From contig JABANN010000161.1 of the NCBI GenBank assembly GCA_013115125.1, forward strand, positions 1-58,841: a stretch of 58,841 nt of DNA, given 5' to 3'. The DNA comes from Perkinsus olseni. Taxonomy: Eukaryota. The translations under genes and the position numbers were made by a program. Shown here piece after piece: positions 3,996-56,291 of this stretch; the first letter of the stretch is position 1; the number at the start of each line of letters is the position of its first letter. The notes beneath the pieces were generated by a model. That model was not told the DNA's origin. It saw nothing but the letters and a program-made list of their open reading frames with translations, and did not search any database.

Positions 3996-4091
3996 AAAAC
4001 TTCACTCGCTGTGATCGTTAGTCTGTGATACGACCGCAGCAAGGACCTCCAGATCTTCAGTCTGGCGCTCTCCCAACTGAGCTATCTGGGC
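3996..4091 (-). ncRNA. tRNA-Phe(GAA) 5' two-thirds fused to a 14-bp hairpin and T4 (pseudo-tRNA or tRNA-derived ncRNA)
   Basis: Canonical nt 1-52 GCCCAGATAGCTCAGTTGGGAGAGCGCCAGACTGAAGATCTGGAGGTCCTTG; no TTCRA loop or 3' acceptor strand; hairpin at 4005-4043. Confidence 0.8.
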
Positions 4092-5794
4092 TACAAAAAC
4101 AGTCTTATTCTTCGGAGCCGAGCAGGGCAAATAGCTGGACGCAAGGGTCGGAGTAGGCGGAAAGCGACAACCGATGCTTATGAGGTTCCCAGAACCTTCG
4201 GCTGCGACTAAAGCCTTCCTGATCACGCGAGCAAGGTTGCCGTGAACCTAACGATTAAGATCCGAAGAGATTACGATCCCAGCTTATCGGCACGTTGCCC
4301 GGGTGGGCTCAGCCACTGTCCAAGCACTGCTATGACCGAGTTTTTCTCCGCCTCATTGCTATCAGGGTGGCCTGAGGATCAGGTCCTGAGCCGCTCTCTG
4401 TCGGAGATTCTCTGAACTTGACACAGTAAGGAGTGGTCGGAGGCAGACTGCCTCAGGAAGTTTGTGGAAAGCCAGGAGTTGCCTCCAACAACTCGGTGGT
4501 CACCAGCGGAAGAAGCGAGAACCTTCCTCGCTTTCTCGCAACAGAAAATTGAAGTCTTTATGTTTGTGTAGCGTTATTATTGTGGTAGGCAGTGGTTGGC
4601 CTTCCACCGATATTCTACTCCCGTGTAATTCTGCTCGGCAACTTCGGGGCTAACCTAATACCGAATTTTCGCGCGATATTTACGACGCGGAGGCTTTAGA
4701 AAACCTTTAGGACGTGTATATTCGTCTAGGTCGCCTCGAAAGTGTCATGGTAGCAATCCTACGTAGAAGAATCGGCGAAATTACCACGCAGAGGCCAGGC
4801 GCACAATACATAGACTTGTGCGCAACGGTCCTGCGATCAAGATCGCAGTACCTCAACGAAAGTACTTAGAGCTAGTATGGTGCTAGATGAGAAACAACCG
4901 TACAAAGTAATGGTTATGATGATGGCGGACGCGAGTTTGACCCAGCCCGCCACTCCCTGGATGTGGAGGTAGGATACTAGAGGTTGGAGCCTCCAACCTG
5001 GTTGCTGTGTCGAGTCAACACTGTTGGCCGCAGCCATCCAAGTCTTGTATGGCTGTGGTCTCGGATTCCGAGAGGAAGGGAATTGTCGGTCGGGCAAGTA
5101 GATAGTGTAGTCGCGGCTTACATTGGGAGGTTTACATTAATGAGCATGCAGACGAAAAGAGCATTTCTCAAGATGGCAGCAATGCTCTCGGATCGGACGA
5201 TTCAGGTTACGAACCTATCGAGGATTTTTCATCTTCCTCCGACAGTCCTTAGGTTGCTTTTCCGTCATCAATGTTATGCGAGGCCCGCATTGCGAGCTGC
5301 CAGAGTCTTCATGAATGTGATGTCTTGTTGTTGATTTGTCCTAGGATCGTGTGCAATGTTGCGATAGCGGAATTTTTCCTCGATATATGCCTGTTGGGAA
5401 GAATGATCTACTGCCAAGCGCTATCGAATTTTCATGCAAATTTCTATTATGAGAGACACAGTATTGTGCTGATCCGTCGGAGGCGCCCAAGGCCCTCAAC
5501 CGTCTGATGAAGGCTATTATGGACCACTTGGATACCATATCTGCTGATCGGAGAGGCACCCAGCAAGACTAGCGACGGATTCGGGAGCAGCAGTGCAGCG
5601 ACAGTGGGAAGAGCGCAGCAGCTGCCGACGCAAGGACGAGGCCCAAGACTTCAGGCTAAGAAGACTGCAGCAGCTGGCAGGCGGAAGAGGTTTGAAGGAC
5701 GGCATTGCGCAGGATTCATAAGGAAAGCTTCAATCGACTGAGTGCTCCTTTGGAGACATTTTATCGAACAGCATATCCGGTGAAGCGTTTGTTA

Positions 5795-7527
5795 CTACAC
5801 CTTTTCCCGGGCAAATAAAATGCTTTTCGTTTGATTTAAAAGGGCCTGGAAAACCGAAGTTTGTTTTAAAAAGTTTTCATCCACTTTAAACACTTTAGCA
5901 ATTTTAAAAACCTCATGTCACGCATATTAAATCCCACTTTTCATGCAATTTGAAATATACTACATTAGCCGCCTGTCAGGATTACTCGCGTAGTGAACCC
6001 GACCCAAAAGATGTACTGCAACTCAGAAGCAACCAAACGTATAGATAATACCCAAGGCGACACGAGTCACCAAAGCTATACGATACGTCGACAAACAACG
6101 TCAGACAACTTAGTCGAACAACTACGTCTGATTACGAAGCTACGAACGTAATCGATCTAGCGAAGCTTAGCTTGAAGCACCCGTCCCGCACTACACAAGT
6201 GCACAATTGTGCAGCGCTGTCCCGATTCCGGCCGAAACCCCACTTCACACCGTCACACGCCGAATTAGAGGGCGCGCGCGAAATTCGCGCATCCTCATTG
6301 TTCATTGCGTGCCTGATTAGGCGTTGCATTCCGTAGCTTTTGTCCCAATATGGTCAATGCCAATGCTGCCGGACGCCCACCCGCCCGCCGTGGTGTGCAA
6401 CCAGGGAGCGTGCGTGGTAAATACACCAAATATCAAGCTGACGTACGTCAACGAGTGCTGAGAGCTCAAGAGAAGGGGCTGAACTGGAAGGATGTTGCCA
6501 TCGCAAACGACGTGAAAATCAGCACGGCGAGAGGGTGGCTGAGACGCGAGGCCCTCGGTCAAGCTCCTAAAGCACGCGGTGGAAAGCGAGACGTGGCCAT
6601 GAAGATGATGGAGGTGCACGAAGAGTTTCTGCTCGAACAACTCGAGCACAACTGTCACTTGACTCTTGGAGAGATGATGGAGCTGCTAGAGAAGGAGTTC
6701 GACCTAAACATCAGCATTAGCACTATAGCAAGGCATTTGGACATGAAGCTATTTACCCTCAAACAGGTGAGAGCCATTTCCCATACGTTTTCTCACTACT
6801 ACGAGATATTGCTCACTCTCAGGCGCGGTTCGAACCACAGGGAGTGAACTCTGCCATCAACCGCAGCAAACGAAAGCAGTATGTTGAACGATTGCTACAA
6901 TTATCTGCCGATGGTTATAATATCCTGTATCAAGATGAAAGTAACATAAGTATCTACTGTCGGAGGACTCAGGGCAGAGCCCAGGCAGGAGACAGAGCGG
7001 TGAGCATTACGCCAAACACTCGAGGGCCCAATTTACACTGCATAGCGGTCTACAGTAGGAGCGAGGGCGTGGTGTACTCTCAGCTGAAGAGAGGTAGCTT
7101 GAAGAAGGAGGCTTTCATAGAATGGTTCGTCGACATGCTACGGGCGGTTAAGGAAGTACTCGAGTTGCCGGATACGGTATATAGTACACAGAGTAGCTCT
7201 GGACAATGTGAAACTGACATGTCACACGTGGCAGCGTTCCTCCAACACGAATCATTGTAGTGTCCTACCGTGTTTCATGAGCTCGGAGTATGTGTTCGAG
7301 TTGCAGGAAAGGATCGTACTAGCAGAATGATTCAGATAGCGAAATTGGATCAAAATCGATTTAAATAGAATGACACGGGTTAAATCGTATTTGCTCATAA
7401 TATTAATTTGGGTGACAAAACGAATTTGGTTTGACAATTTTTTAATTCCAATGACACTCGCTAAATTGCTATCAAAATGGTTTAAACCGAACGAGAAAAC
7501 ATTTTATTTGCTTGGGAAATGGTGTAG
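5795..7527 (+). mobile_element. IS630/Tc1/mariner-superfamily DNA transposon, defective
   Basis: About 45-bp imperfect TIRs (left CTACACCTTTTCCCGGGCAAATAAAATG; right, reverse-complemented, CTACACCATTTCCCAAGCAAATAAAATG) flanked by TA at 5793-5794 and 7528-7529; AT-rich subterminal DNA; transposase inside. Confidence 0.9.
6350..7280 (+). pseudogene. Transposase (HTH plus partial DDE domain) with intron 6767-6822; C-terminal catalytic part missing
   Basis: HTH-like N-terminus (LTLGEMMELLEKEFDLNISISTIARHL) and first Asp motif YQDES; no intact DNAxxH or PYSPxLNPIE motif. Confidence 0.8.
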
Positions 7528-8050
7528 TAGCAGTTATTCCGCCGTAGACTACGGCCTGTGGCGAGGCACGTGACAGATCAAGTGAGCTCGCCAGTTTTTC
7601 AACCTCACAAGTAGACAACCATCTCAAGTTGAGATTCTCAACTAGAGGCCCGTTGCGATGTCCCTGCCCAAAGTGCCGGAATAGTTGCTGGTCTTCTCCG
7701 TGCTGACTTCTAACCTCACCAGACTCGTTCTCAGACTTAGTCAGGCTTCATGCAGCTCCTTGGCCACCGGATTAAAGTCATTTGCCGAATTTCGGCAGTC
7801 CTCTTCGCCCAGCCATATACTTCTTGTGGCGCGCGTACAAGCTTTGCACGTGTATCACGGGCGGCCGCAGATCCATAATATGTCTTCTGTCCCCGCATGC
7901 CTGATTTACTCCGTAAATTTTACTGAGAGCCTCCCCCGCCCCCTTGAGGGAGACTTCGCCCTGAGGGACGCTTGAGTGATCCACGCGCGGCAGGAAAAGT
8001 GGCTTAGTGGTCTTCACTTCATCGGCATCTTCGTAGATTATACTCATCTC

Positions 8051-9757: not shown

Positions 9758-9774
9758 GCATATAACCTCATGGT

Positions 9775-10530: not shown

Positions 10531-10588
10531 AGATGGACGCAACTGGCGTGAGTGAGCCGAGCGTTGCAAAGACGGAAGGCGGAAAGCC

Positions 10589-18183: not shown

Positions 18184-18213
18184 AGGTCGCAGGTTCGATT
18201 CGAAGCGACGGCA
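18184..18213 (+). other. tRNA-derived variable loop/T-arm (B-box) remnant, intergenic
   Basis: AGGTC GCAGG TTCGATT CGAAG CGACGGC A. Confidence 0.55.
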
Positions 18214-18308: not shown

Positions 18309-19878
<1,570 letters not shown>

Positions 19879-21201: not shown

Positions 21202-23721
21202 CTAATAATGACGGTGGCACCGGCGGAGCTGGAAGACGTATCCTTCACTGAACCTCAGAGTCCATTCGTCGTTGGTTTCAAATCGAAGTTTAGTTTCTTC
21301 GGGAAGCATCGGTTCCACTGAATAAGCGTGCAGCCCAGCCTCGAAGAATTGCATTGATAATCGGCCTCTTTGTTCTCCGGTCAGAGCGTCCAGATCTAGA
21401 CTCAGCTCCTTGCTCCCATCATAGATAGAACCATTCAGTGGTACTCGGTAGGGACAGACGGTCGGCAGAGAAGAGGGGAATACGAACGCGAATGAAACGA
21501 TCCACGGGTTGTTATCATACACTCGCAGTGTGATGGCGCCGAAACCATGGGAAGCTGTTGGAGTGCAGTAAAAAACAGGACAGCTATCACTTCGATCATG
21601 CGGCAGTCTTGGACATGATTGGCCTTTTTCCGACCTCAATCTGAGAACAACGCTCTTGTGGCCTTGAGAAGTTAGGTTGTGATAGTCGAAGTCCAGACGA
21701 AGGTTCCTGTCAGCGGCGCCGTTTCTTCTCGTTTCATCCTCGTATAGCCTCACGTTGAAGAAGCTGTACCCCTGACCATCCGCTGATGTCGGGGCGATAC
21801 CTCTCGCGGACGCAATTCTTGCCAAAGTCGACAAGGCATGCAGCCTATCCTCTCTTGATAGGGTGAATATTTCTAGGTAAAAGCAGTTAGGCGAAGACGT
21901 GCAAGAGGCCCGTCGCAAGGGAATGAGTGCCGTCTTTCTATTCGCCCATCTATGCCTCGCCTTTTTGATTTCATTTTTGCGGTCTGCTTGACTGCTCGCC
22001 GCAAACTCACTATCCTCGAACTTCAGTTCAACTGCGAGTTGCTGACCGTGATGTGAGACCTCGACAGAAATGCTATCATTCACCGCTCTATCGAGCCCCA
22101 TACCCTCATTGACGTAGACGCCAGGCGTGACACTAGCGGCTGCAAGGGCTTCGGCACTTGGCTCGCCAGCGCGCGTTCGGGTTTGGGCTTCACTTCCCCT
22201 CGAAGCATTTCCAAAACGGCGCTTCAGCTTCGTAAACATTGACGCTGATGTCGCTGGCGACACTTTCCGTTGCTTGTCGTGCCGAGAAGGACCTTCCACA
22301 GAGGCTTTCTTCCTGACGGGAGACTCGGAGTCCCGAGCTGTAGCCGTTTTCTGCACAGGACGCTTACATAACTTGGGAATCTTGCACGACGACGGATGCT
22401 CCCCCGGGGATGACGGTTTACTGGATTGCACCGAAACTGGCGAGGGATTGTTGCTGACGCTTTTCCATAGAGGAAATTGAACGTTACCAAGACGGATTCT
22501 CATCGACGGCTTCGTGAAAACCACTACTGGTCTGTACGGCATTTTCCGACCCTCGTTAAGCTCCTCGACGACGTGCCACAAAGCGCTTCCTTTCGAGAGC
22601 CTGTACCCCACGAGGCTCTTCCCTCTCCGGTACACCTTCATATCGTGTGTCTCGCACCAGAAACCATTAGACTTTGTCACCTTCACAATTATTTCCGATT
22701 CATCGAACTTAACGTTGATGTACACTTCCAGACTGGTAAGGTGTCGTAGAAATTCCCGAGGAATAGATGCTTGATACAACTGATACCTATCTTTATAGCC
22801 CTCCTCTCGTTGCCGCTTCTGCAGCACTATATCAGCGTAATGATCACCGTTATCAGTTTTCAACAGCGCCTGGGGAGTCCGGAGGAAGCAGAGGGATAAC
22901 ACATTCGTAACGATTCCCATTTCGGCGAGGTGAAAGACGGCGCCAGCTTCGTCCACCTGTATTTCATAACACTGTCGCTTGCCACTCGAGGAAGTCTTTT
23001 TTGCCATCACTATTGGCCCTATGTCAACCGTGTTGTTCTCCTCGGCGCCGAAACTCATCCTGCATTGCAAGGCATCATCACCAGCTTTCCTCTTCTCAAC
23101 CACCATTTGAATTTGAACACCCTCGTTCGATATGCCCTGGTAGTATCCAGCCATGTCGACCATCCTTTCATCACGATGGAGCTGGACAACAAGACCTTCG
23201 CCAAACTTTATCGTGGTCGGTTGAAGGGGACGAGGACACATCAGAATGCTTCCGAGCGGCACTGCTCTGTTGCTTTCATAAGCCATGACAGTAGTCAATA
23301 CATCAAGAAATCGTTTCGGCTTGGAGACGATAGTGGCGACATCAAAGATAAAACACCCGTCTCTTCCGGGAATGACGAGAAGACTTCTAGTTTGGATTAG
23401 CTTAGCATTATTATCGGACATCTCCAAGGCGAGGCCTATGGTCGCAGGCTCGTCATTCACGCTAGATCTCATCGTCACGCGCGCGACTCCGCGCTCACCA
23501 AAGGCGGGCGGCAATGACCAAACACTGCTGACGAAATACCCGTCCGCGGTCAGGAGATCGTCGTAATCATCCTTGGCGATCGGGAGTCTTAGCCCACTAT
23601 TCCCCCCTTCGTTTCTTGTGGACGCCACGGCTCCTAATTTCGTGGCGCGTGACGATGATATGAGCCAAGACGCGATGAAGAAGATACGACCAAGTCGTTG
23701 AAGCATACGGGTTCTATGCAA
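21202..23721 (-). CDS. Intronless 839-aa protein with signal-like N-terminus and central low-complexity basic linker
   Basis: Long ORF; RIFFIASWLISSS hydrophobic segment. Confidence 0.8.
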   Translation of the reverse strand: MHRTRMLQRLGRIFFIASWLISSSRATKLGAVASTRNEGGNSGLRLPIAKDDYDDLLTADGYFVSSVWSLPPAFGERGVARVTMRSSVNDEPATIGLALEMSDNNAKLIQTRSLLVIPGRDGCFIFDVATIVSKPKRFLDVLTTVMAYESNRAVPLGSILMCPRPLQPTTIKFGEGLVVQLHRDERMVDMAGYYQGISNEGVQIQMVVEKRKAGDDALQCRMSFGAEENNTVDIGPIVMAKKTSSSGKRQCYEIQVDEAGAVFHLAEMGIVTNVLSLCFLRTPQALLKTDNGDHYADIVLQKRQREEGYKDRYQLYQASIPREFLRHLTSLEVYINVKFDESEIIVKVTKSNGFWCETHDMKVYRRGKSLVGYRLSKGSALWHVVEELNEGRKMPYRPVVVFTKPSMRIRLGNVQFPLWKSVSNNPSPVSVQSSKPSSPGEHPSSCKIPKLCKRPVQKTATARDSESPVRKKASVEGPSRHDKQRKVSPATSASMFTKLKRRFGNASRGSEAQTRTRAGEPSAEALAAASVTPGVYVNEGMGLDRAVNDSISVEVSHHGQQLAVELKFEDSEFAASSQADRKNEIKKARHRWANRKTALIPLRRASCTSSPNCFYLEIFTLSREDRLHALSTLARIASARGIAPTSADGQGYSFFNVRLYEDETRRNGAADRNLRLDFDYHNLTSQGHKSVVLRLRSEKGQSCPRLPHDRSDSCPVFYCTPTASHGFGAITLRVYDNNPWIVSFAFVFPSSLPTVCPYRVPLNGSIYDGSKELSLDLDALTGEQRGRLSMQFFEAGLHAYSVEPMLPEETKLRFETNDEWTLRFSEGYVFQLRRCHRHY

Positions 23722-25128
23722 CTGAACTAACCCTTACAATAGTGACGTGGCCACAGTCAGACACGACCGCTGTGATTGTAACATGCCCACAGCTAACGTG
23801 GCACCATCACAACCAAGCTCAGCCACCTCGGCCATCATCTCGGTATGTGTGTCTGTTCGAAGTGCAACACCGTCACCGGCGTGGTTGGACACAAACCCGA
23901 TGCCGACTGCTGTTCCGACGAGCCGAATGAACTAACTATACCATCATTCCGAGACAGGCTATCGAACCCACGAAAAATCGCTACTCCGGAACCGAAGTAT
24001 TGAAAGCAGATTTCACTAGTCACAATCATTGGCGGGGGTTGGTTTGCGAAGCACTGAGGATATCATAAATGTCCTCGAGACAGAGGAAAACCCATCCACG
24101 CTCGAAAAGCGGTGAAAAGCGCCCTAAAATGGCTACGCCCGCTCTTCGCTGGGCCGCACGTCTCGAGGACCTGGTGCCGAGGCTTTCCTGTCCGCCCGGA
24201 CACCTTAATCGTGAACGCCATGATCCAGACTATTGACTCAAAATGACACGAAGCCCGCTGGTCGACACAGCACAAGCCGAACTGATGGTCAATGGTGTGT
24301 AGTGATCCGCCTCTCCTTATCGTTGTTTTATTCGGATACACCATTGTGTTCGACCTGTCTCTGCGGCGTGTGCAGGTCAATGATATCTTAGCGCCCTTTG
24401 TATATTGCTCTGGCGTGAAGCTAGTAGTTGCTATTGAGACTAATTTTGATGTATGCATAACTAAGAAGTATCAAGAGCCTAACTTCCTTTCCTATGTCAC
24501 AGCTTCCGTCGAGTTCTAAGGGTGGCGAGATTCCTGCTGTTTCTAGTGAACGGCCTGGTCAAGCCGGGAACACTACAGTGCGCTGTAACGGTAATCACCC
24601 GCCACCTCCGATGGCCGCCCTCCCTTAACCTGCCATTTTAAATAGAGTAAGACATGAGAGTTGCCCGCAAAAATCGCTCAGGCGTTGCAGTGAGTCTGAC
24701 TAGCTAGCTCATTCCCTTCTTCGTATATCGCTCTTCCGTCGGCCTATGCCCCCTGCGTGTTTTCGTTACATCTGCGCCGGATAACACGAGCTCGAATCCT
24801 TCGATCGCTCACTCGATAGCTCCGTAATAAGAGGGAGACGCAACAAGCCAGAAAGGATCTCCATTGACCGGCCATATTAAGCTCTAGCCCTGTGTTCCCG
24901 CTGCGAGGGAATCTTCCCCGCGCAAACCACCGAGGCCACTCATTTCAACTCATATTCGGCCCAACGGTCATCGGTCTAAGCGTAAGCACAGGCTGCATGC
25001 TTGATGAATTCGGATATAAACCTGTGAGAAGAAAGAGGGAAGGAAATTTCTCCGCTCGAATGTATCCCTGAGGAAAGCTTCTTGCCGAACCGTCTTATTG
25101 CACTGCATATCAACGCTACAGAGAGTCA

Positions 25129-35452: not shown

Positions 35453-35544
35453 CGTGATGCGCTTCGCTCCGCCCAGAAATTACCGCGCGCCACGAAATTA
35501 ACACATCACATCATCACTTGTTGCTTGGTGGCAGTTTTGCTGAA

Positions 35545-36401
35545 ATGCCAAAGTATTTCTGCGAGTATTGTGATATCTTCCTGGCTCACAGCAGCTTCTT
35601 CGGGAGGAAGCAGCACTCAACGGGTCGGAAGCATATTCAAAATAAAATTGAGTAAGTCGCTGGAGGTCTTCCTTCGACCTTTTTTGTATCTTCCTAGCTC
35701 GACCTGAAGATATTCTTCAGTTACTACACCGAGCAGATGAAGGAAAAGGGTGTCGGTGTCCCCAATTATGATGATCAGCCCGAAGCTAAAGGTAATAACG
35801 CTTTCACGTTCTAGAATCGTTCCTAATAATCTGGAGAGGAATCTTTCGCTCCCGACCTTTTTTGTATAGGTCGCGCATGTAGCCAGTTAAGATACGAGGT
35901 TTCATACTTCCTTTAATCATCATCCTCCTTCTCCTTTCAGCCCTCGGACCAGTAACCTACCCCTCGGCCGTCGCCCCCGTGGGCGGCTCTCACCCCTACG
36001 CCCCTCCCTTCGCTGGCAAGGGCTTCGGAAAGGGCAAGGGCATGCTCTTCGGGAAGGGCTTCGGTAATATCTCCACTTCCAATACCACACTTTCCGTATC
36101 AAACCACGCTAGCAACTGTTGCTAAGCAACACCTTTCTGACTTCGAGATCGCGTCTCCGCTTAGACTACGTTATTCTGAGTGCACCAGTGTGGGGCTAGC
36201 CTCCTTACTCACAACCCACTGTACGAGGCTGAGAATAGCCATCCTTACACCATTGCTTGTAGTTGCGCTCGAATTTTTATGCTACTTTCACACGACCAAC
36301 CTCTATGCCTTCAGGATTCCCTATGATGGGTAAGGGCTTCCCGATGCCTCCTCCCCCCGGACCCTTCGGCAATCGCCCCCTCGGCTGAGCACTCAACGTA
36401 G
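35545..36401 (+). CDS. SNRPC: U1 snRNP protein C (4 exons)
   Basis: [31 protein letters not shown]1-C zinc finger; Pro/Gly/Met-rich tail. Confidence 0.93.
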
Positions 36402-42499: not shown

Positions 42500-45345
42500 C
42501 CTTACAAATTCGATTCGGTGGCGTTGTAGTCTGCAAGGTCGGTAGCGGCTGAGGTCCGCTGGATTCCCCATGGAAGAATGCGTGTTCCACCACACATCGA
42601 AGGCGCCCCAATTTCGATCCCTGATTGAATGGGCCTATGTTCAGCTATCGGCGCCCTCCTACCTGAGGTGGCCCTCGAGCTCTCTGGCTGGCCCGGCCTG
42701 CCGTATCCGGAGGTCGACTCTGGCCGGTGACGAGAATGGTCCGTCCCCAGAAGGAAGATACCTGCGAGAAGGAATCTTGAAGCTCTGCCGTCTGCCAAGG
42801 CCAACCTTCATAGCATCCGCGATTCTTTTGATATCATGCTTGAAGTCAGACAAGAAGGAGGCACTCCGTAGTAGTGCACGATACACCGGGTTAACCTACA
42901 GGTGATCGTCACAGGCTGCCGATGGCCCCGAGCTGCTACATCCTCGACGAAAGTCTTGGCAAGGGTGGAGGGCGTGGTGAATACCGCATTTCCGCCGCCT
43001 TGTGGGGGAAGGGAATTGATCGCGATCTCCGACATTAGCCGGTCGTTCACAACGCACTCGAACAGGACGACCAGCATGTGCACCTGCACGGGCAACTTAG
43101 GAGAGCACTCGAGGCAGTTCCAGGTAGCTTACGAAACTGTAAATTTCCGAGGAGTTAAAGAATTTCCGGTCGTCTTCGCCCTCCATCAGCATATCCTCGC
43201 ACGTGCCACTGACGGCTGGATGCGTGAACACCACTTCCATGAGGGGATAGTACCTGGGAAGGGGAGGCCGACCTGAGCCAGGGGAACACAACCAGCAGCC
43301 GCTTTACAGTGGTAACGCTTCCATGTTCACGGGATTGCGCAGTAGCCGCTGCATCGCTGTGACGTAGTACGGCCATACATCGGCGTCTGCGACGGAGGGG
43401 CTGCCCAGCCAGGAGCCTTGATAAGGACGATGATGAGCTGAGGGGGTCCTTGGACGCTTACCGGCTCCCCAGGGCTGCAGCAGCATTATCCAGATCTTGA
43501 TGAGGTAGACGGCGGTCTCGCTGCTCACTGACGAGGAGGCCGCCGATTTGTCCTTGCAAAGTTTCCTGTTCAAAAAAAGGAAAACGTTGGGCGGAGCGAA
43601 GCAGGGAGATGCTCACAAGTGGAGTAACTCTACGATGGAGGGTAGGAGGACTTGACACTCCGGCGGGAAGGAGGGGGGCAGTGGCGACCGGCTGCCGTCC
43701 CGGTCACCGGAAAGCAGCGTCCACTGAGATGGGAAGAGTGAAGACACAGTGCAGTAGGGGACATTGAAGCCGACTGGGTGCAAAGAGACAGAAAAGAGCG
43801 AAGCATTCAAAGGTCGCTGTGGACATATAACCCGAGGCGAAGACAATGGAAGATGGGAAACCGCAGACACGATACGGGGTGGCGCTTCAACGATCAACTT
43901 GAAACACTCACGAGCGAATGCCGGGGACAAGCCGATAGCCGATGGTATTATCTCTCTCACAGATTGCTTCGCTACTATTCCTATAGCCACACGATCGCCC
44001 AGGAGGACTGACCTAGCCTTGGCTAGGGGGGAGTATCTTACCTCCTGATCGGACATTCCACCGAAGGCTGTTGAGCCTCGAGCCTCCTCGGCATCAATGG
44101 CGGTGATGGAGGCTGACAAGAAACAAGACGCCATCAGCATGCTCGACGGCGAGGCAGCCAGTACACCGATTTTACGTTGCGCAGTCGGAGATTCAAGAAA
44201 CTTAGACGAAAGTAGAGCTCCTACTGTCAATCCTGGCTCCGGGCAGCAGCGAGTGGATGGCAGGCCGATAAGAAAGAAGCTGTCACATGAGATCGAAGAG
44301 TCGAGAAAACCTCTTGTACGCGAGCGACTCCCGAACCCATCTCATTGTAAACTCTCTGCCCCTATTCTGCATGGCATTTTGATAAGGAAGACGCCATGAC
44401 GACAGGCTTACCTCTCAATGAGTCCAAGGCCAAGACACGGATACACACCGTCCGCAGTGAGCGTAGCAAGGGCACGTCTAGCTTCATTTGGGCCACACCA
44501 ACAGGGCCACTCAACTGCGGGGATATCCAGAACGGAGTAACCAAGTGGACCAGCAGGAGGCCCTGAACTCGGACTACAGTCGGCACTCCCCTACTCCCTT
44601 ACCATGCGCCGCCTGTGCTGTTTTTCTCCAGGACTTGTGCTGTCAGACTCCCCTGAGGTCATAGGGGTTTGGTCAAAATACCTATACAGACCACGTCTGG
44701 TCACCTCCGACTTCCGGCATCTCCCTCAGCGACGTGCACGGACGCAAGCTCACCTGGCCAGATACAAGTCCAAGAGCCTATCGTAGGCGTCCGAAAAGGC
44801 CTCTCCTGTATCCGAAGGGCAGCGTCTCTGAGAGGACAAGGCCAGGGCGTGAAGCTGGCGTAGTGTGACCAACCTTAGACGAGCCGATGCCCAACTCGTG
44901 TGAGGACCAGAAGTCCTTACGACCGCTGTAGGAGTGCTGACTGCGCCTGACGAAGAGATAGTGGTGGTGCGAGCAGGGACGGACCCCTACCCGGCAGCGA
45001 CGTCCATGGCCGATATTGGACCGGAGATCATCAGATAGACGAAGCAGAAGAGGAAGTACTCCTGAGAAAGTCTGAGTAACTGTGAGTACAACTTCTCACA
45101 CTGTTGGAGCCAATTGAAGGAAAGGAACAATCGTGAGGCCTCCGAGAGGCGGCCACTGGCCATGCCTGTGGGTTGTGTCGACCTACCTCAGCAGTGAGTT
45201 GGATGGAGCGAGAGTCGGACTGATAGCGGTCGGGTAGCGAGAGGAACTCACAGAGTGCCTGAATGAAGGCTGTGAGGCGTTGTGGTAGTGAAAGTAGCAT
45301 AAAATGATAACGGCAGTGGATACACGGGCGAGAGGCCAAGGACAT
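42500..45345 (-). CDS. Large multi-exon protein, possibly SMPD4-like
   Basis: LIKIWIMLLQPW, VWPYYV and RPIQSGIE occur in the order of SMPD4-family motifs (by eye). Confidence 0.35.
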
Positions 45346-45479: not shown

Positions 45480-48218
45480 TATTATCACAGCACCAGCAGG
45501 AGAATAGACGACACAAGTATTGCTTCTGTGTAACAAAGCCACCAGCCTGGAGACCCACGCAAAGTCGCAGCGAAGCGCGAACTCACGTCACGAGGCTTGG
45601 CCCTCCGACCGGCTGACCCCCCTCCGAGGGCGTAAAACGATCGCTGACTGGTGGCATGGGCGGCGTCAAACTGCTCCCCTGTCTGTATCAGTAGCTCCCT
45701 TTGTGTGGCCGTTGGCAGCACTGAGATCGGCAACAAGTACCTGCCGGAAACTGTGGACCGGGCGGAGGCTAGACGGGCCCCCACCTCAAATTTCCGCCGT
45801 ACACGACCCGACCGGAAGGGCCCGGGACGCCACTCTGAGCTGCTACTAACTCCAGCAGTGGCCCCTTGGGGTCGAACACGCCCAGAATAATAGAGTCCAC
45901 CGTGCCTGGGATGAGGAGGGCGTGAAGAGGGGCGCCGAGCGAGGACCTACTTGACTCAGCCCTCAGCCATCTCGAAAGGCAGAGCATTATCTGGGGCAGA
46001 TAGGCCAGCAGCTCCGAGTTCAGTTTGCTAGTGCCTGACCGAGAACCACTCGGTGTGCCTTCTCATTGTTGTTAAGGCCCTTGCCTGCCCGGCCTAGTGC
46101 CGTCTCCTGTCTGCAGTAGGCTTCTAACTTCCTCGCGCTCTCGGCCGGGCTATCGAAACCATTGACTATCTGAAGCACGACAGCCTAGTAGCTTCTAGTA
46201 GCAGCAGCGGTACCTCCTCGAGGGACTTCGCGTCTGTTGTGTACTGTTGTTGACGAGAGCCGGGCAGGAAGCCCCGGTGAAGCAGGTTCGAGGCCTCCGC
46301 CCCCAGCCCGGTGGCGCCGAACGACCGATGGTGAGAGTCCGTTGAAGAGCCGGGGAACATCACTACCACTCTTGAACGTGAAAGGGGGTGAACTCAAAAC
46401 ATTCAGAAAAAATCACAAAGGTTTGCTGCTGCTGCCGCTGCTGCTGCTGCACGTGGTGGTGTCGGCCATGCCCGTCATCATCATCGAAGCGGCCTTTAGC
46501 ATGCGATACTCCTCCATCTTGGCGTCGAAGGCCTCGATGTACCTGCAAGGTCGCCTAGGGTTTCTATCGGACGTTCGACCTTACGGTGCCCGCTGGTCGT
46601 CGGTCATAGCCAGCCATTGCCGGGCCGCGATAACCCCGAAGGCAGAGGCTTCTATTGGTCGGCTGGGATCTAGCAGACGGGCCATGAGAGCCTCTCGTCC
46701 GCGGCAGAGCTCACTCAGTTTTCTAGCGTTGTGCAGCTGCACTCTGGCGAAGGCTAGGTAGGCACTGCACGGCCGCTGAGGAGTTGTTAAGGTGTTGATT
46801 TCGGAGAGGAGGTCCTTGTGAGGGGCGGGAGGGGCCGTCGTCGCCTGGGAGCTCACCAACGGGGGTGTGGACTCTGGGTGGCTGGGCTGGGAGCCTGAGA
46901 TCATAGCCAAATCAATGACGACGGTTGCTGCCGACGAAAGAAACACAGGAGTGGTCCTGCAGGAGGTAACAGGGAGGCGTGAGCTACCGCCGGGCTAGTT
47001 GTTCCCGTGAGAAGTTGTACTATCGATCCAAAGTCTCGCACTGCAGTGGTTATCGGGCGTTGGCTACCGTCAGGAATGGTATCTCTCAAGAGCCAACCAT
47101 GTGAATCTTTGCGCACCGCCTGGATTTTTCCGGGAGATGAAAAAATCCATGTTCGCAACCTGGACTCCTCGAAAACTACTCCGCGGCAATTGGGCTCATA
47201 GAGCTGGATGAGGTCCGGGGCTCTTTGCGTCAAGTCACGCACGAAAAGGGCTGGGGAAGCCTAGAAGGCCTACTGGCCCCGTTCATTCTCTTTAGTCTCT
47301 TCGCCGGGCGCCCATAAAGGGCGTTGATGCTCATCCTCTTGCCACCAACGACGGCATCACCCGGCCCGAGTGCCGGTGGGGGAGCCCGAGGGAGGCCAGC
47401 GAGCTGTGCGATGAACTGAGGGGGAGGTACGGACTGATGCGACACTCCGACAGGGCGACGAGCGATGGGAGAATTGAGAGCAGCGCATTACGATGATCGT
47501 ACGACGGATGCTGACCTACGTCAAGTCTGAGCTGGGGGCGTGCGTGCAGAATCGCAACCACCATCTCGAATAGGTGATGGTCTGGCACGGAGGCGAACAT
47601 CTGACTGATGCCAGCTCTAGTCGAATCTTGTTGACTCATATCTTGCAAGAGTCGACCTATCGCCAACACCAACCCTCTCCTCCCCTGGCGCCAACAGCCG
47701 TCACCCTCTGGACTCCAACGCAAGAATGTAGGCTCAGTAGCTAGAACCGATGGTAGGTTGTGAGTGCTCAACGCTAGAAAAGTCTTCAATAGTCAAAGTA
47801 GCAGCAGCAGCAGCAGCAGCAGCAGCAGGCCTCTAATTGGAACACTCTATCATTCCAGCTGCCGGGGCGAGACCACCGGAGTCCACTCATCCTCGTCGTC
47901 ATCGTCCCCGTCTATCTCCCAAGGTTGCACTGTATTCTTTCGTATTTTGCTTGCAGTGTTCACACTGACATTCAAGTTGGTCAGGCGTTCGTCCAGTAGG
48001 GATTGCTCGAGGGTAACAGTGTCGCAGGGTATGAGCCTGAAAGACAAAGAGTATGTTGCCACAGCACCAGCGTTACACCATGACTCATGTTCAATCGGCG
48101 TGGTTGGAACCCGAACCCGACGTGGTCATCGCAGTACCCAGCCCGGGAAACCCGAACTCACGGATGTTGCTCATGAAAGTGTCACTTTACATTGGAATGT
48201 GTCTCTGAAATTTTCCAT
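45480..48218 (-). CDS. HMG-box-containing protein (locus limits uncertain; may be more than one gene)
   Basis: PQRPCSAYLAF...AARQWLAMTDDQRAP|YIEAFDAKMEEY HMG box at about 46500-46790. Confidence 0.65.
47800..47826. repeat. (AGC)9 microsatellite
   Basis: Seen directly in sequence. Confidence 0.9.
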
Positions 48219-48259
48219 GTTCTCTCCCAAGGCTACAGGGGTATGCGTCTTTATCGTAC

Positions 48260-50721
48260 TTACTCTCGGCCAGGGGTCATCGTAGCAAGGGTCGATTCCC
48301 GCTTCAAGAGAGCGCCCAAGGCCCCGAGGTAGTGGGCATGACGGAAATAGAGGGCCTTCATGCGGCCTCCCGTCCAGAAGTTGAAAGACGACTGTATCGA
48401 GCTGAATACCTGACAGAGGGAATCTTAGCTCGATGCTTGCAAAAAACAAAAGATACTCCTAAGCAAGGTCATCGACCTACCTGCAGCAGGTGAGTATCCA
48501 AAAGATACCCCACAAAGACCACATTGTCGATGCCGTACAGGCTAGCATGAAGATACGCCAACTGACCTGTGTTCATGGACATGAGGTTCATCAAGGACCT
48601 CGCTATCTCCGAGCTTTTCACCTGCCCACCACCATCAGCGTATTGCCCTGCCATCTCTCGCTCGGCATTCCGCTTACATGCTCCCGTTGTTCCTTGTTAT
48701 TAGCCTTACCGAAGCTCGAGGCCACAGTGTTGCCCTTGAGGCCTATGGATGGATAGTCACCGCCGTAGATGTCCGAAACCAGCAAGTCCAATGGTGAAAA
48801 ATCACAAGTCTTGCCGCACCGTAGAATATCTAAGAATAGTAAAAACAGGAATCGAACCCGCGACCTACGCGAGCGAAGCGCACCGGCCTAACCAACTGAG
48901 GTACCTGCAGGTGTTCTCGAACACTTTGCTGGAAGCATATGCCTGGCCATCCCCATCACCGTCGCCCCGCCTATCGGAGACCCTCCCACACGATACATCG
49001 ATCTGCCAGAAAGCAATCCTCCCCGAACCCAGCCAGGCGTCCTCATCATTACATTGGTGAATCCACTCTGTAAAAACTCGTACCGCTCTTCATGCTAACC
49101 ATAAGGAACGGAAAGATACTTTGGAACTTCTCCGACTTCACAAACTCCATTCCCTCGACCAACTCGGGATTTGACGGCAGAGACCCCGCCAGATTGACCC
49201 CCTAAAAGCAACCCTACAAGATCAACCATCAGCCCCCTCCTCTACTACTGAGTCCTTCCCGATGTTAGGGAAGTAGAAGCACTCTTGTGGGACATGCCGC
49301 AAAACGTAGTTGATCCCAGCCAGCACACAGGCCGACTCACGATGCCGCTCGCACCTTGCCCCCAGTGAGCGCTCGATAGCTGACACAGACGAGATGGTTG
49401 GACTTGGCCGTCGGATGAATGCTCCTAGTACAGTCCTGAAGCCTCCAAACACCGCTGCCTACTCCAGCGAAGGAGTTGCCCTTGCTCTTCCTTTGTAGTG
49501 ACAGGAGGTACTGGCCAACCTGAATGAGAATTCTGCTGCCAATGGGCTTGGGAATGATACAAAAACGGCGCGATAACCCACTGACTAGAAAGGCCACCCC
49601 GGCCGACTAACGCTCGAGCTTCTCCCCGAAGCGGCAACAACTTCAGTCACCAAGGGACCATTAAACCCGTTCTCTCAGCAGCGGCGGATATCGAGCACGT
49701 GCATTCATACCGCCAGCGATCATCCCAATGGTCAGGCTGCATCAGCGACTCCTCCCCAGTGAATCATACCTCTGTTGATAGGAACTGTTGTGTATCATTA
49801 AGGTCAAAATCCACGAATCTTATCTCGCTCGCATCGTCCGTACTCCTTATCGTCCAATCCTCCATCCCTTCGTTCCACTCACTAGACGCTAGGGAAGATG
49901 CTTGCGACTCCGTACTGTCAGCCGGACTCTCGGCGGGGCTCTCATCGCCTACAGTGCCACAAAGTATCAAGAAACTGTTGCGGACCGCTCCCAAGGAAAG
50001 CGTGTAAGTTTGGAAATCCCAAGATAAATTTTAAGTCAAGATCCGCTATAATGTAGAATTCACCCCTGCACAACCAATTAACCTCTCTAGATGTCTCGTA
50101 CCGCACCATCCACAATAATTGCTATGGCGAGGACTTTGCTCGAAGGCCATACAGTTCAAAAGGCCCGGGTACACCACAATTGATCTTCTGACTAGTAGAG
50201 GAGACTGGAGATGGACTGCGAGGAGGAGTTCTTCCGCCAAATCGGTTAAGATGGCCCGGTGGTCCAACACCGTCTGATTAGCGGAAGGTGTGGTACGCGG
50301 ACTACTGCTTCAGTACTTTCTGAAGCAGCATATACTCCCGCTCCAGCTATTGTCGGACTCTGTCAGTCCGACTCCTTCCTCTCGTCGATAATGCCTCAAT
50401 CCCTCGAGCGCTGCCTCGCCCTCCTAGCTAACGAATCATGCGTACAACGCAGGTCGATGCTCGTTAATTGTACGGATCACTTCCTCATAACAATTTCCAA
50501 TCTCTACTACATTATCGACGACGCAGTAACAACCAAACGCCCCGCCGCTGCCGCCGCCCACTACTACTGCTTCCTGCGGAGGCGTGTCTATGCGACCTTC
50601 TCCGCCCAGCCAGAAAACTGAGGTCAGTTGGTATGGGGCAGTCATCGGTGTCGGAGGCCCGGACGCGGACTGCAATTTTACCGATGTTGCCGCCAAGATC
50701 CACTCCGACGAGATTACCCAT
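48260..50721 (-). CDS. PANK: Type II pantothenate kinase, divergent
   Basis: VGVDLGGNIGK, FPFLMVSMKSGTSFYRV, RVGGSPIGGAT, DLLVSDIYGGDY..IGL...VASSFGK, FWTGG..KALYFRHAHYLGALGA. Confidence 0.9.
48830..48904 (-). other. 75-nt PanK intron consisting of a tRNA-Arg(TCG)-like body
   Basis: G TA CCTC AGTTGGTTA GGCC G GTGCG CTTCGCT CGCGT AGGTC GCGGG TTCGATT CCTGT TTTT ACTATTCTTAG; removal restores the PanK frame (GCA G|AT). Confidence 0.85.
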
Positions 50722-50981: not shown

Positions 50982-53900
50982 TCAGATACGACTTTCCGTC
51001 TTCAGATTGATCCCCGGGCCCACTACACTCGGCACCTAGTGAGAGCGCCCATCAGAAGCAGATACCCCAGCAACCCGTCTCCGTGGACTACCTCGACATG
51101 CACACTGGCCCACTCGGGTTCTCGGCGCTGCTTCAACGCTCTGATGCCCTCGGCTGCCTCCTTCCCAGCACGGAGGTGAGCTATCACAGTCGCCACTGAA
51201 CGGGTGAGCTCCGCTGTCCCCTGGAAAAAGGCGGAGCGTAGTTTTTTCGGCCGCCTTCAGTGCTGCCCACCATCTCCTTCTTTTCCATATTAAAAGCCAG
51301 TTTCTTCAACTCACTGACAGCATGAGGTTCGCTCAGTCTAATGCGATCAGCCACCGCTTGCAGGGCCGAGTCCAAATCGGTCTTCCTCTGAACTACTATG
51401 TCAACAATCCCTGAGCTGACCAGTCCGACGCCGAGGGAGGCAGAGACTCCTACCGGCTGCCTTCGCCTCATCGGCGTCGATCGGAGTGGCTAGCGCCGCT
51501 AAGCGGACGGCTGTCAAGGGGCCAACACGGCGTATGACAAAGGGAAGGATAGTCGCTGGACAAACGCCTGATGGGAGGGGAGATCCACTCGGCCGGAACA
51601 AAGCTTTTTCCCGGGGAAGGCTAGATGGATTCATCCGAGCGGGCATGGGCCAGGCTCATCAATGGGAGGTGACTCAGCCGTCGTAGCAGAAACATCTCGG
51701 ACTGAATGGAGTGGAAGATGGGGCAAAGTATGGACGAACTCCGGAGTTGTGAGTATTTCACGCACGATTATACTGATCTGGCTAGACGATGGAGTGCTCA
51801 GTAGTTCGACACCGAGGTATCCCGGGCTGAAGTTCAGCGCGTCGGGACCAAATCCAATATCTACGATAATGATCAGACTACCAAGTTTAACCTCGGACAG
51901 TGTGAGCTCGGTGCTCTCTCTAGAAGCGATGACCATATCGCAGGCAGCAAGGAGTCCCCATCCACCGCCAAACACGCGCCCTGATACCGCGCAGACTAGG
52001 AACTGAGAGCAGACCACTCACAACCCCGACGATTTAACCAGGCTGCTGACCTGGGGAATTCTGGCCAGTTGAGTGAGAACTCGGACGAAATTACTCGCGC
52101 CTTCAACGTTTTCAGCCAAGGACCTGCCGCCACCAACTCAGTGGAACGGCCGAGATCCCCCAACCCACTCACACGGCTCGACTCCTGCTGAACTCTCTGG
52201 GGTCCAGACCAGCGCAGAAGGTACGGCTGTCCGGAGTGGCCCTCAGCACGACCAGACGAACCTGCACTCAAATCAACAACGAAGCCGTTCGAATGACGGT
52301 CTACATTGCGGCGGACGTCAGCGTTGTTGGTGAGGAGATCTGTGCACCTAGTCAAGGAGCCCATCATCTCGTCGGTAAGGGAGTTGTGCTCCTTTGGTCT
52401 GTTCAGTATCTACGATTGGTGTGGTATTGTTCTAAAAAGCGATTGGGAATGCTAATGATGATCTGTGGTTGACATTGTTCGCCGTTCCCCATGCCCTTAT
52501 ACGACTGTCCTTTTTTACTCATTATTTTGCGTCAATCCGCCCGTGCGGTATGTTACAGCCCTTCCCTCCCGACCGGCACTCCTACCACACCTCCCTCATA
52601 TTACGATCTCAGCGACGTGCTTGGATATGTGTACGACAAAGTCGAAGCCTTTGCCCGAGAACCCCATGCACTCTGCCGAAAAGTGCTGCAGCTCCGGCAC
52701 CTTGCTAGGCCGAACGTCGTCCAGCTGATACAGAGAGGGACCGCAATAAGAGGTCCCCAGAGGACGGCCAAGCTTACCGCTATCGACGGCATGAGGAGAG
52801 GCATCTGCAGAAGCATCTGACCGTAGGACTTGCCGAGGTTGTCCGCATGCAGAGAGGCCATACCTAGGAGGATCGTCCCTGTGTGGCTAGCGGCTGAACA
52901 GGTGCTCACCTCCGCCGCCGAGTATGTCGGTCAGCAGGAAGTTGAAGGCCCCGAGGCCAGGGACGTCGTAGCGTACCTGAGGTACCCTAGGGGGAGGAGA
53001 GAGCGAAGCGCTTACACAGGACGTGCTGGGGAGGTTCCACCGACTCTTGAAAAACTGTCGGACGGCATCAGCAGTGATTTGATGCTTGATGAATGGCAGA
53101 TATCTGAGTAAGTACGAACAGTCGTATCTATAGTCGACCGTGGTAAGATACGGAATAGGTGCCCGGAGTAGTGTCACACAGTTCAGACTGGGATCCACCA
53201 TAACCGATGGACGCCCTCGTGTCACCTCTCATTCCGAGCGAAGAGTCCAACATTAACATTATTCCCTTTGTCACCAGATCTCGCATAGCATACACGAAGC
53301 AAATCGACCTGATAAAAGATACTCTTCGGCTATTTTGTAACACGCAAGGTCGACCTCAAGATACGCTGCGATGACACTGCTATCCGTGAACAGTAAGCCT
53401 TGCAGAATCGACAAGATAGCACCGGAAACTATTCCCTAGTCGATCATCATTTCAAGTGCTCAATCCCGGCAGTCAGCGATCAGCAAGTGGGGCACCACCG
53501 AGCTAATGACATTAGCTGCCGAAGCGCGCGGGTTTTTTTAGCATTATTCTTGCACGGCATGAAAAATACGGAAATTGCGGTATGATACTGCACGAGTTCC
53601 AACTGTAGGTTTCAATACCACACTTCTGAAGCATCTGTACTATCACAGCGGAATTATGTCGATCGTTCATGACTCTGGGAAGGTCACAGACCACAGGAAA
53701 AATTCCAGAAAAAAATTAGAAAGCTTCACCGTATGGACCTCCCGCCCCCTGCAATTTCGAGCCCACGATGCCCAGAGTTGACCGCGGCCAATCGGACAAT
53801 ACACTTAGCGGGCCTTCTTACTGTCTCGCAAGGAGAGAACTCATGAGGGTCCGCGGCCTGAACGACGGGGACGCGTTCTGTGGTATGGGGCCAATGGATA

Positions 53901-56291
53901 TTGACCGGCCCTCCTGATGGCTGCAGTTGCCGCTCAGCTCCATTCCCTGGCGAAAAGATCTACTGGAAAAAGGATAGAAAGGATGAGGTACCAATTTGTA
54001 TCTTAGGTGGAAGCTTGCTCTTGGCGGCTAGCATCGGAACCATGCGGATGATCGCTTGCGGCCGGGCGCGGCCTCCAGTGAAGCCAATGGTGCCTGGGCC
54101 ATGCTAACTTCAGCATAATCTCTCAGGACAAGACCCACACACACTATCGTGTATCGCTCGCAACTCGTGGTCTCGAGGTCCCGGGTTCGATCCCCGGACT
54201 GGTATTTTTTACCTGGAGCCATCGACGTCCCTGCACTGATGAGCTCGTTGGCTAACAGCTGCAACACCTTCCTGTCTTGATGCTTCGCCGCCATCCGTAC
54301 CACTGCCTGTGAGTTAAATCAAACCAGCCTCACGTCACCCTCCCTCGGACGCACCTCGAAATCGCTGCCGATGGTCTCGATCCTGGTTTCGTCCAGACTG
54401 ATGCCCAGGTGCCTCTCGACCCCTGCGACCAAGGCCTCAGACGCTCCCCAGTGACCATCCCCTCACGTTTGATAATCGCCTCCACCGTCTTGCGTGCCTT
54501 GACCTCGGCATTGTGGCCTCTGACGATGATACTAGTGGAGACCTTGAAGCCGTCTAGGTAGGTACCTCACATCAAGGCAGTAAAACAGGAACCTTCATCA
54601 AAGCAACAATATCATCTACCACAAACTTTGTAGGTTTCCGTCGGACACTTCCCTCGAGCGTTGGACACTCGTACCACATTATTCCCAACTTGATCCACCT
54701 TGACTTGGGTGAAGTCACATACGACGTCCGGGACCTGGTCAGAGGTCTGTTGCACGGCAGAGCAAGGATGGCGCGCCCGTTAAGGGAGCCTGCTCAGATG
54801 CGCTGAAGTCGGTTTTTAACAGGAGAACAAGATGCGGTCATGGTTCACAGAAGACAGAGTTCACCAAAAACGAAGCGATTCGAAGAATAGGGAGAACGTG
54901 GTGGATGCCAAGGTGTAACGGTGTAAGGTGAAGGGATGATACATTTTCGTATGTTGCAAGGATCAACCTAAGATATCCCGGCGCATGAGTATCATTACTA
55001 GGGTTACATGCAATAGGAAGTCGACTGGCCTCTGCCCACACACGGACTAAAGCGACGTTGACAGGTAGTACAAACGACACGAAAAAAATACTTTCTGTGA
55101 CAAAAGGCGATAAGGGAAGTGAGACCACTATGCCTCCAAGTGGCAGGTGTGGCTGGAGGCAGCACTCACATGCAGGCCATGGTGGCCTCACTTTTCGAGC
55201 ATTACATTTTCCGCTACAGGCTGTGGTATTACTACTTACTATGTAGTTGCCAGGATCTCCAATCTCGTACAGGATTTGTTCCTTCACACCTTCAACCTAA
55301 GATACTCCTATATTCCCATACCACACCATCCGCTAATCACCATAACTCTGCCCCCTGTTCCGGGAGGCTTCGAAAGCAAGAACTCCCCACTAGCCAGGAC
55401 CTCCGCAATGGGGTAGCCTATGTTCGACCTGCCCACGGCAACTACGCCCCTCCTAAGCATCCTCCAGTACCATCCTTCCGCCACTCCCGTCTCGAGACAG
55501 TCCGTCATGAGCCCACCAGTGGCCTGGGCGCCGCACTCGAGGACGTGACCGGCCAGAGTCCCCGAAGCCATCAAGTCAAGGTCCTCCATAGACCATCCAA
55601 ACCTATCCAACTTACGCATGGCGAGCCCTCGCTGGCACCGTCCAGGCCTACTCATGAATGAGAGGCGCTAGCACCAGGGCCGAATCCACCACGCGGCCAG
55701 TGACGACGATATCCGCACCCCCAGCGAGGCACTCCACGATCGGAGCTGCTCCGAGATACCTATTTTGGGGATTCTGAGGAGGTGGTGTGTCGGAGGCCAT
55801 GACCCACACGTTAGCAGTGGTGAGACTCTTCCTGTGAGGGACATTGTCGATGAGATCCCCGATTTCCTTCAATACATCATCACCATATACCACACCAACT
55901 GCAACTCAATCGACTGATGTTAATTTTATGCTACTTTACTACCTTTAACCTCTCCCCAACCCCTCTCCTCATAAACTTTCTCAATAGCCGCCTTGCATGC
56001 TTTCGGGTTCAGCCCGCCGGCGTTAGTGATGAATTTGATCCCCTTCGCTTTGGCCTCTCCGCCCACCATCTTAATAACCTCTATAAAATCAGTAGCATAT
56101 CCCAACTTTCTTCCAGATCGTTGTTTGGCCGCATACAACAGCGACATGGTCAGCTCAGCTAGATAGTCACCGATAAGGTACTCCACTCGTCCTCTGCTCA
56201 CAAGCTGCGGTGCCGCCGTAAGACTGTCTCCCCAGAACCCACAGAAGCCTCCAATCCTCACACTATCTCTGCTGGCCACTGGGGCTGGCAT
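50982..56291 (-). CDS. AtuA (DUF1446)-family protein fused to an enoyl-CoA hydratase/crotonase domain
   Basis: GFWGDS, DYLAELTM, YLGA.PI, TGRVVDSAL, AGHVLECG.Q.TGG, ARSGDKG, then in-frame ILNRPKEHNSL, VFGGGWGLLAACD, LSEVKLG. Confidence 0.8.
54159..54210 (+). pseudogene. tRNA 3' half with perfect T-arm and T6, antisense within AtuA intron 54094-54212
   Basis: CTCGTGG TCTCG AGGTC CCGGG TTCGATC CCCGG ACTGGTA TTTTTT. Confidence 0.75.
55117..55193. repeat. Inverted repeat (14/16-bp arms, inner 8-bp stem) in a 505-nt intron
   Basis: AAGTGAGACCACTATG ... CATGGTGGCCTCACTT; inner TGCCTCCA/TGGAGGCA. Confidence 0.75.

Follow-up and report, generated by a model that had tools for sequence, protein, structure and literature searches.

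Introduction

Pseudogenes and fragments of transfer RNA (tRNA) genes and the tRNA-derived heads of short interspersed elements (SINEs) are relics that keep the T-arm with its B-box, have lost the cloverleaf, carry an RNA polymerase III (Pol III) terminator, and are found in introns and in intergenic DNA. Here we describe six short sequences with the same traits in a stretch of 58,841 nt (contig JABANN010000161.1, analysed as a whole and called the window below) from the mollusc parasite Perkinsus olseni. These copies are about 19–62 nt long and have no SINE body or tail, and two of them are essentially the whole of an intron of about 50–75 nt. While tRNA fragments in non-coding DNA are of a known kind, the unusual feature of this window is minimal introns that are built almost wholly of tRNA-gene fragments. 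A second known system is formed by the ETC (extra TFIIIC) sites or chromosome-organising clamps of yeast, which consist of a lone B-box without a working tRNA gene, some of them in or beside genes transcribed by RNA polymerase II (Pol II). An isolated B-box consensus is also present here. Terminators together with tRNA spacing in four of the copies point to a recent origin from genes rather than to stand-alone sites of the ETC type.

A spliceosomal intron that arose from captured organelle DNA has reportedly been described as a demonstrated gain by Curtis and Archibald in 2010. The filler is foreign in both cases; the difference is that the one testable intron position in our window most likely predates its content. 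Introners are inserted DNA with ends at splice sites, and they occur in dinoflagellates, which are relatives of Perkinsus (PMC11282704; PMC7789003 for Amoebophrya). Each of their families consists of near-identical members with terminal repeats (PMC11282704, PMC7789003), while the copies described here share only the T-arm. Neither tRNA-derived introners nor introners in Perkinsus are mentioned in the available parts of these two papers (PMC11282704, PMC7789003), and, outside subscription journals and supplements, no publication dealing with spliceosomal introns derived from tRNA or with Perkinsus introners was found.

Within the genus, a link between tRNA genes and mobile DNA has been described. 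According to the available part of the work of Kojima and Jurka (2013, PMC3706591), five families of Dada DNA transposons insert into tRNA genes of P. marinus, three of them with the target TAGCTC within the A box. For P. marinus, the same source counts over 500 tRNA genes belonging to five types (349 of tRNA-Leu-CTT, 116 of tRNA-Gly-GGA, 46 and 9 of tRNA-Ile, and 23 of tRNA-Tyr), and for zebrafish Dada it proposes a one-ended transposition that leaves mismatched tRNA fragments (PMC3706591). Besides the shared genus, the start of one of our copies (TACCTC, copy at 48849) resembles the TAGCTC target (PMC3706591). A tRNA gene disrupted by Dada would leave a fragment that borders on the element, with a target duplication of 6–7 bp. 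No transposase domain adjoins any copy, and no Dada element was recognised next to one in a comparison made without a Dada reference sequence. All-against-window blastn revealed no common sequence adjoining the fragments, and the sole transposase-like reading frames seen in the window are Tc1/mariner-like (6317–7257).

Six T-Arm/B-Box Sites in Excess of Chance

The window is from P. olseni, an alveolate and not a fungus, as judged by protein identity: a 50-aa exon at 48678–48827 (− strand) is 100% identical to pantothenate kinase proteins recorded as P. olseni and 90% identical to one recorded as P. chesapeaki. Its sole intact tRNA is a tRNA-His at 3910–3981 (−), which was called by ARAGORN at default settings and scored 61.7 bits with the Rfam model. 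When its settings were relaxed, ARAGORN proposed tRNAs interrupted by introns hundreds of bases long, and the loosest setting gave about 100 calls; these were judged spurious.

The B-box core GTTCGATYC is present six times in the whole window, at 18193 (+), 28678 (−), 34120 (−), 35312 (−), 48849 (−), and 54185 (+). Shuffled sequences contained it 1.10 times on average, and none of 100 shuffles reached six occurrences. The 16-mer AGGTCSCRGGTTCGAT occurs four times in the window with 0.00 expected. An original prediction, made from the letters of the window, had reported six core sites outside real tRNAs and four sites of the 16-mer, and both counts were borne out. A search with a 19-nt T-arm pattern allowing up to three mismatches led to exactly the same six sites, with 1.02 expected. 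As control we used 373,474 nt of eukaryotic DNA with a GC content similar to that of the window (0.51), from 80 metagenome loci around pantothenate kinase genes, in which no tRNA gene was found. This DNA has four occurrences of GTTCGATYC (0.63 per 58.8 kb), and neither the 16-mer nor the 19-nt pattern with up to three mismatches was detected in its 373,474 nt. The 11-nt B-box with two mismatches allowed gave 32 matches in place of 29 expected and was discarded as noise. Judged by these counts, the six sites match the T-arm/B-box consensus beyond chance and are fragments derived from tRNA genes.

With the copies oriented as tRNAs, all-against-window blastn finds a common sequence of just 17–37 nt, which comprises the variable loop and the T-arm and in some pairs extends into the 3′ part. 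Four of the six copies are followed by a T5–T6 run. This run begins directly at tRNA position 73/74 in the copies at 28678, 35312, and 54185, while T5 follows the T-stem in the copy at 48849; a degraded run (34120) and no run (18193) characterize the remaining copies (Table 1). No CCA is present. Together with the T-run right after position 73 in three copies, the absence of CCA indicates that the source was a gene or a primary transcript and not a mature tRNA. The T-stem is fully paired (5/5) in the copies at 48849 and 54185; pairing is reduced to 3/5 in the copies at 28678, 34120, and 35312 and to 1/5 in the copy at 18193. Thus, the features that had been predicted, namely a mostly preserved tRNA spacing followed by T5–T6 in four copies and a predominant loss of stem pairing, were recovered, with broken T-stems in four copies and intact ones in two. 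The 9-nt core is perfect in all six copies, and the 11-nt B-box consensus GGTTCGANNCC is matched at 10–11 of 11 positions in each of them, without a functional tRNA.

The Rfam tRNA model (RF00005) has a threshold of 29 bits for a functional tRNA. When 181 nt were searched, the copy at 48849 scored 18.9 bits (E 0.1) and thus remained below this threshold; it is the only copy that keeps a D-arm-like 19-mer (three mismatches, 0.01 expected) and an anticodon-arm-like stretch. For the copy at 54185, Rfam recognises only the T-arm hairpin. Searches of small regions gave no match to the model for the copies at 34120, 35312, and 28678, and the copy at 18193 had no match in the scan of the whole window, a small-region search not having been made for it. 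By ARAGORN and Rfam, none of the six copies is a functional tRNA or forms a cloverleaf. No 5′ acceptor partner without mismatch was found within 600 nt of the copies at 28678, 35312, and 54185, and two 7-mers with a single mismatch are far away.

Three Fragments Are Located in Introns Directly behind the Donor

The copies are present in both orientations relative to their host genes. Three are located in introns, one in a 3′ flank, and two in 5′ or intergenic DNA. Four intronic copies had been predicted: three of the copies do lie in introns (Table 1), and the other three do not. The accompanying claim of a GT donor in or beside tRNA-derived sequence holds for all three supported introns, and in each of them base +2 or +3 of the intron is the first base of the fragment.

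Table 1. Coordinates of the fragment-bearing introns, the copies outside introns, and a truncated tRNA gene.
Feature	Position	Strand	Remarks
75-nt phase-1 intron, pantothenate kinase gene	48830–48904	−	Exon map of P0002, joins aa 266|267
119-nt phase-1 intron, AtuA/enoyl-CoA-hydratase gene	54094–54212	−	Exon map of P0009, joins aa 401|402
55-nt phase-2 intron, Perkinsus-specific gene	28643–28697	−	P0158, joins aa 341|342
Copy at 18193, 5′ strand of T-arm and loop only	18184–18202	+	T-stem 1/5, no T-run
Copy at 34120, T-arm and 3′ part at tRNA spacing	34104–34137	−	Degraded T-run TATATTA
Copy at 35312, T-loop, 3′ strand, positions 66–73, T5 (35295–35299)	35295–35329	−	
Truncated tRNA-Phe(GAA) gene	4038–4091	−	57 nt upstream of tRNA-His; Rfam 27.4 bits

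The protein P0002 (723 aa) maps exon by exon on 46416–50721 (−) and defines the pantothenate kinase gene. Its 75-nt intron contains tRNA positions of about 7–65 in sense orientation, with the D-arm-like sequence at 48885–48903, the anticodon-arm-like stretch, and the T-arm at 48848–48866, followed by T5 at 48841–48845 and then by the acceptor. The alignment to a chytrid homologue crosses the junction with only a 3-residue gap, and retention of the intron would lead to an in-frame stop codon.

The second intron belongs to the AtuA/enoyl-CoA-hydratase gene, on which P0009 (898 aa, 99% identical) maps at 50985–56291 (−). Here, a tRNA 3′ fragment is found in antisense orientation at the 5′ end of the intron (54176–54210, +) and comprises a perfect T-arm, positions 66–73, and T6. 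As its donor, this intron has GTAAAAAA, which corresponds to the complement of the terminator with two added bases. The alignment to an independent AtuA homologue (P0024, 44% identical) continues across the junction and has no gap at that point. The last 45 nt of this 119-nt intron (GTGGGT..CAG) have the size and the ends of an ordinary intron, which suggests that the intron is an extension of an old one.

The 55-nt intron consists nearly entirely of a tRNA 3′ fragment in sense orientation, with the T-arm core at 28677–28695, positions 66–73, and T5 at 28661–28665. Its donor GTAAGG overlaps the AAGG of the variable loop. P0158 is a P. olseni protein from another haplotype, which is 96–98% identical in the exons flanking this intron, and retention would again cause an in-frame stop. 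The intron rests on the annotated gene model and the reading frame, with no distant homologue to confirm it: the encoded protein has no Pfam family, and a homologue search gave no protein besides P0158.

The contigs of run X7 have joints with GT..AG (or CT..AC) ends, which identifies X7 as spliced RNA of P. olseni; run X8 is DNA of a relative with about 5–10% divergence. None of the X7 joints listed spans the 55-nt intron, and the support for the 75-nt and the 119-nt intron comes from the exon maps of annotated proteins and from homologues, not from RNA joints. In total, 54 introns were resolved, 39 from P0002 and P0009, 14 from RNA joints, and the 55-nt intron. Their median length is 52.5 nt; 33 are not longer than 56 nt and 12 exceed 150 nt. 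This set is from one window and is biased to genes that were modelled for holding fragments.

The Position of the Pantothenate Kinase Intron Most Likely Predates the Fragment

The age of one of the three intron positions could be assessed by comparison with the 80 pantothenate kinase loci from metagenomes, which are 27–41% identical and of which none is from Perkinsus. The tblastn alignment continues through the junction in 70 of them, several with a stop-containing insert at this position, and has a break or no cover in the other 10. We inspected 17 loci with a break or a stop-containing insert in detail. In 13 of these 17 (13 of all 80; L055, L059, L060, L061, L063, L064, L067, L068, L069, L072, L073, L074, and L075) a GT..AG intron is present at the same codon and in the same phase 1. 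This intron is absent from L052 and L065, and the anchor was not found in L057 and L058. At the junction, the 13 loci have ..FD G|gt..ag|AG-ML.. and Perkinsus has ..PA G|gt..ag|AT-IL.., and in both groups the split codon lies 15 residues ahead of the D that precedes LLVSDIYGGDY. The T-arm pattern was found in none of the 80 loci.

A position and phase that are common to very distant eukaryotes are most simply explained by an intron older than its tRNA-like content. Most likely, therefore, the position of the pantothenate kinase intron predates the fragment; a parallel gain of an intron there is a less likely alternative. From this comparison it appears that the intron already existed and that its content was replaced or invaded by tRNA-like sequence. 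The view of the original prediction that tRNA genes or their cDNAs are a source of new introns thus fails where it is testable.

The Copies outside of Introns and a Truncated tRNA Gene

The copy at 18193 follows the stop codon of the spermidine synthase gene (− strand) at a distance of about 110 nt; it is on the opposite strand and after the last RNA-supported intron of this gene. At the same gene, an RNA contig ends at 19905 with loose letters whose complement is TCTTGGCTCA. We take this sequence to resemble the Perkinsus spliced leader at its 3′ end, in which case 19905 would be a trans-splice site of spermidine synthase.

The other two copies lie in a gap of about 1.4 kb that separates a + strand gene from a − strand gene, for which an ATG near 34063 is the likely start codon. 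The copy at 34120 lies about 60 nt upstream of this ATG, and an RNA contig (34066–34887) spans it without a joint and thus unspliced. The copy at 35312 is in the 5′ or intergenic DNA upstream of the + strand gene, which has its first RNA-supported intron at 35652–35720, and it is likewise spanned without a joint by an RNA contig (34858–35413). One X7 contig with a depth of 14 joins 34651 to 35482 and skips 830 nt including the copy at 35312. This joint has one extra G, no GT..AG ends, and no terminal repeats, and may represent a haplotype that does not have the segment or a chimera of the assembly.

The truncated tRNA-Phe gene retains the 5′ two-thirds of the tRNA, with intact D and anticodon arms, and is cut off precisely where the T-arm begins. 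With its end (AGGTCC) it overlaps the point at which most of the 3′ fragments become recognisable. A search for the missing 3′ part gave no candidate adjoining a T-arm.

Origin of the Fragments

On balance, the six sites are probably decayed or truncated copies of tRNA genes and represent debris of the large and mobile tRNA complement of Perkinsus. Each copy would begin near the variable loop, include the T-arm, and end with the Pol III terminator, with one longer copy that covers positions of about 7–65. Such fragments would be by-products of tRNA-gene turnover that reach non-coding DNA, and they would survive only where they do no harm and are presumably neutral, in short introns, in a 3′ flank, or in 5′ and intergenic DNA. 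They may have arrived as 5′-truncated copies of primary Pol III transcripts, a route that would account for the constancy of the 3′ end with its T-run. Alternatively, breaks inside an existing intron may have been repaired with captured tRNA-gene DNA as filler, or a tRNA gene that was formerly nested in an intron may have eroded. Features of tRNA genes may also mimic splice signals: AGGT or AAGG of the variable loop could provide or abut the GT donor, and the T-run could act as pyrimidine tract in sense orientation and as GTAAAAAA donor in antisense orientation. This likeness would allow fragments to fill tiny introns. That the copies differ outside of 17–37 nt is expected of different tRNA species or independent events, and the abundance of tRNA genes and the tRNA-targeting transposons in P. 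marinus make frequent fragments in Perkinsus unsurprising.

Several observations weigh against an origin as mere debris. Neutral decay should leave intermediates, while all six cores are perfect next to four broken T-stems, and no copy with a damaged core was found in the window with up to three mismatches. The perfect cores could be due to selection on the B-box, to breakpoints in the T-loop, or to natural stem variation among tRNA species in combination with how the copies were detected. Each of the three intronic fragments starts at +2 or +3. Without the fragment, the 55-nt intron would be reduced to about 20 nt and the 75-nt intron to about 13 nt; these remainders are too short for an intron, so that the fragment is the intron body and not an addition to it. 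Since introns near 50 nt can accommodate a fragment of 35–60 nt only straight after the donor, the adjacency to the donor is less surprising than it may seem. Finally, the observations come from one window of one species, with three introns that have no direct RNA joint.

An alternative is that inserted tRNA-gene fragments create new spliceosomal introns, by bringing along a GT and a T-run and being spliced out at once. In its favour, the 55-nt and 75-nt introns are almost wholly fragment, the donor is at the fragment edge in all three cases, the 55-nt intron sits in a lineage-specific gene, and the pantothenate kinase of Perkinsus has three extra residues by the junction compared to the chytrid homologue. 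We nevertheless consider this explanation unlikely, considering that the pantothenate kinase position and phase are shared with 13 of 80 unrelated loci free of the motif, that the last 45 nt of the AtuA intron already look intron-like, and that three other copies are outside of introns. A related scenario, to which we likewise assign a low probability, is that pieces of tRNA genes from the variable loop to the terminator are recurrently captured at 5′ splice sites as bodies of minimal introns. The terminator would then supply the pyrimidine tract, and AGGT/AAGG or the complement of the terminator flank would supply the donor; intron sequence would be replaced in general, with true gain in lineage-specific genes (e.g., at 28643–28697), and the B-box may serve TFIIIC.

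The contrast of perfect cores and broken stems would also fit a retention of the B-boxes by selection, as putative TFIIIC sites of the ETC type or as short Pol III units in or beside Pol II genes. In addition to the six perfect GTTCGATYC cores, the 10–11 matches to the 11-nt B-box and the broken stems in four of the six copies, no partly damaged core appeared in the mismatch-tolerant search, four copies have kept the terminator, and the copy at 48849 retains an A-box-like D-arm. However, the copies were found by searching for this same core, and the T-loop is invariant among tRNAs while stems vary by species, so that a mismatch elsewhere than in the core is not necessarily due to decay. An A-box is missing from five of the six copies, and placement and orientation are heterogeneous. 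To us, such a function of the sites appears quite improbable.

That the sites are copies of one dispersed repeat with a tRNA-derived core (a SINE, a miniature inverted-repeat transposable element (MITE), or an introner) is very unlikely: despite the density of six copies in 59 kb, the sequence GCAGGTTCGAT common to three of them, pairs that align over up to 37 nt, and the presence of other repeats in the window (a 66-nt repeat at 28136–28204 and 4914–4982 and a 30-nt intron motif), the copies have nothing in common beyond the T-arm and its 3′ part, their T-stems vary in sequence like those of different tRNA species, and no inverted-repeat pair flanks a fragment in a window-wide scan, in which target-site duplications were not specifically sought. 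Within the window, where only 17–37 nt are shared, this supports the original argument that the differing 3′ tails speak against a single SINE family.

If the copies are debris only, the non-coding DNA of Perkinsus is unusually rich in fragments of tRNA genes, with six in 59 kb versus none in the 373 kb of control DNA. An intron of about 50 nt that can be almost entirely tRNA fragment shows how little sequence such introns need. If fragments were preferentially taken up at donors, or if B-boxes were retained, Perkinsus would be a tractable case of Pol III DNA that is recycled into Pol II gene architecture, and could show the turnover of intron sequence at fixed, ancient positions.

Other Repeats and Reading Frames in the Window

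A motif of about 30 nt, (A)GAGGTTGTnGnTGTGAAAGTAGCATAAAA, occurs five times in the window (18810–18839, 36275–36304, 45279–45304, 55924–55953, and 56708–56737). Its 11-mer GTAGCATAAAA is exact in all five copies, with 0.59 expected even if one mismatch is allowed. At least three copies are in short introns, and both orientations occur. Upstream the similarity fades, as in 5′-truncated retrocopies that end in an A-run.

The two copies of a repeat of 66–69 nt (28136–28204 and, inverted, 4914–4982) are 86% identical. One is located in a long intron about 450 nt from a tRNA fragment and the other near tRNA-His. Contigs of X8 pile up at this repeat, with a bin depth of 1372 compared to about 90 and with loose ends at 28107 and 28203, which indicates a high-copy element.

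The Tc1/mariner-like DNA transposon extends over 5790–7532. Its inverted ends of 37 nt (5790–5826 and 7496–7532) are 86% complementary, and its reading frames have weak matches below the cut-off to HTH_32 (30.3 bits against 33.7 required) and DDE_3 (23.5 bits against 28.6).

An intronless reading frame of 843 aa (21205–23733, −) stands out in this intron-rich genome. It has normal cover by X8 DNA, and no cover by X7 RNA contigs was seen over 21335–23335. It was considered as a transposase and rejected, as it had no Pfam match, and may be a silent mobile element or an orphan gene. Another reading frame (54841–55296, −) was dismissed; it has no homologues and lies inside an annotated intron of 505 nt.

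At 31239–31745, a − strand reading frame contains periodic repeats of 9–15 nt (31 overlapping copies, with a unit of 174 nt). This region has many conflicting joints in all four runs and represents a low-complexity coding repeat.

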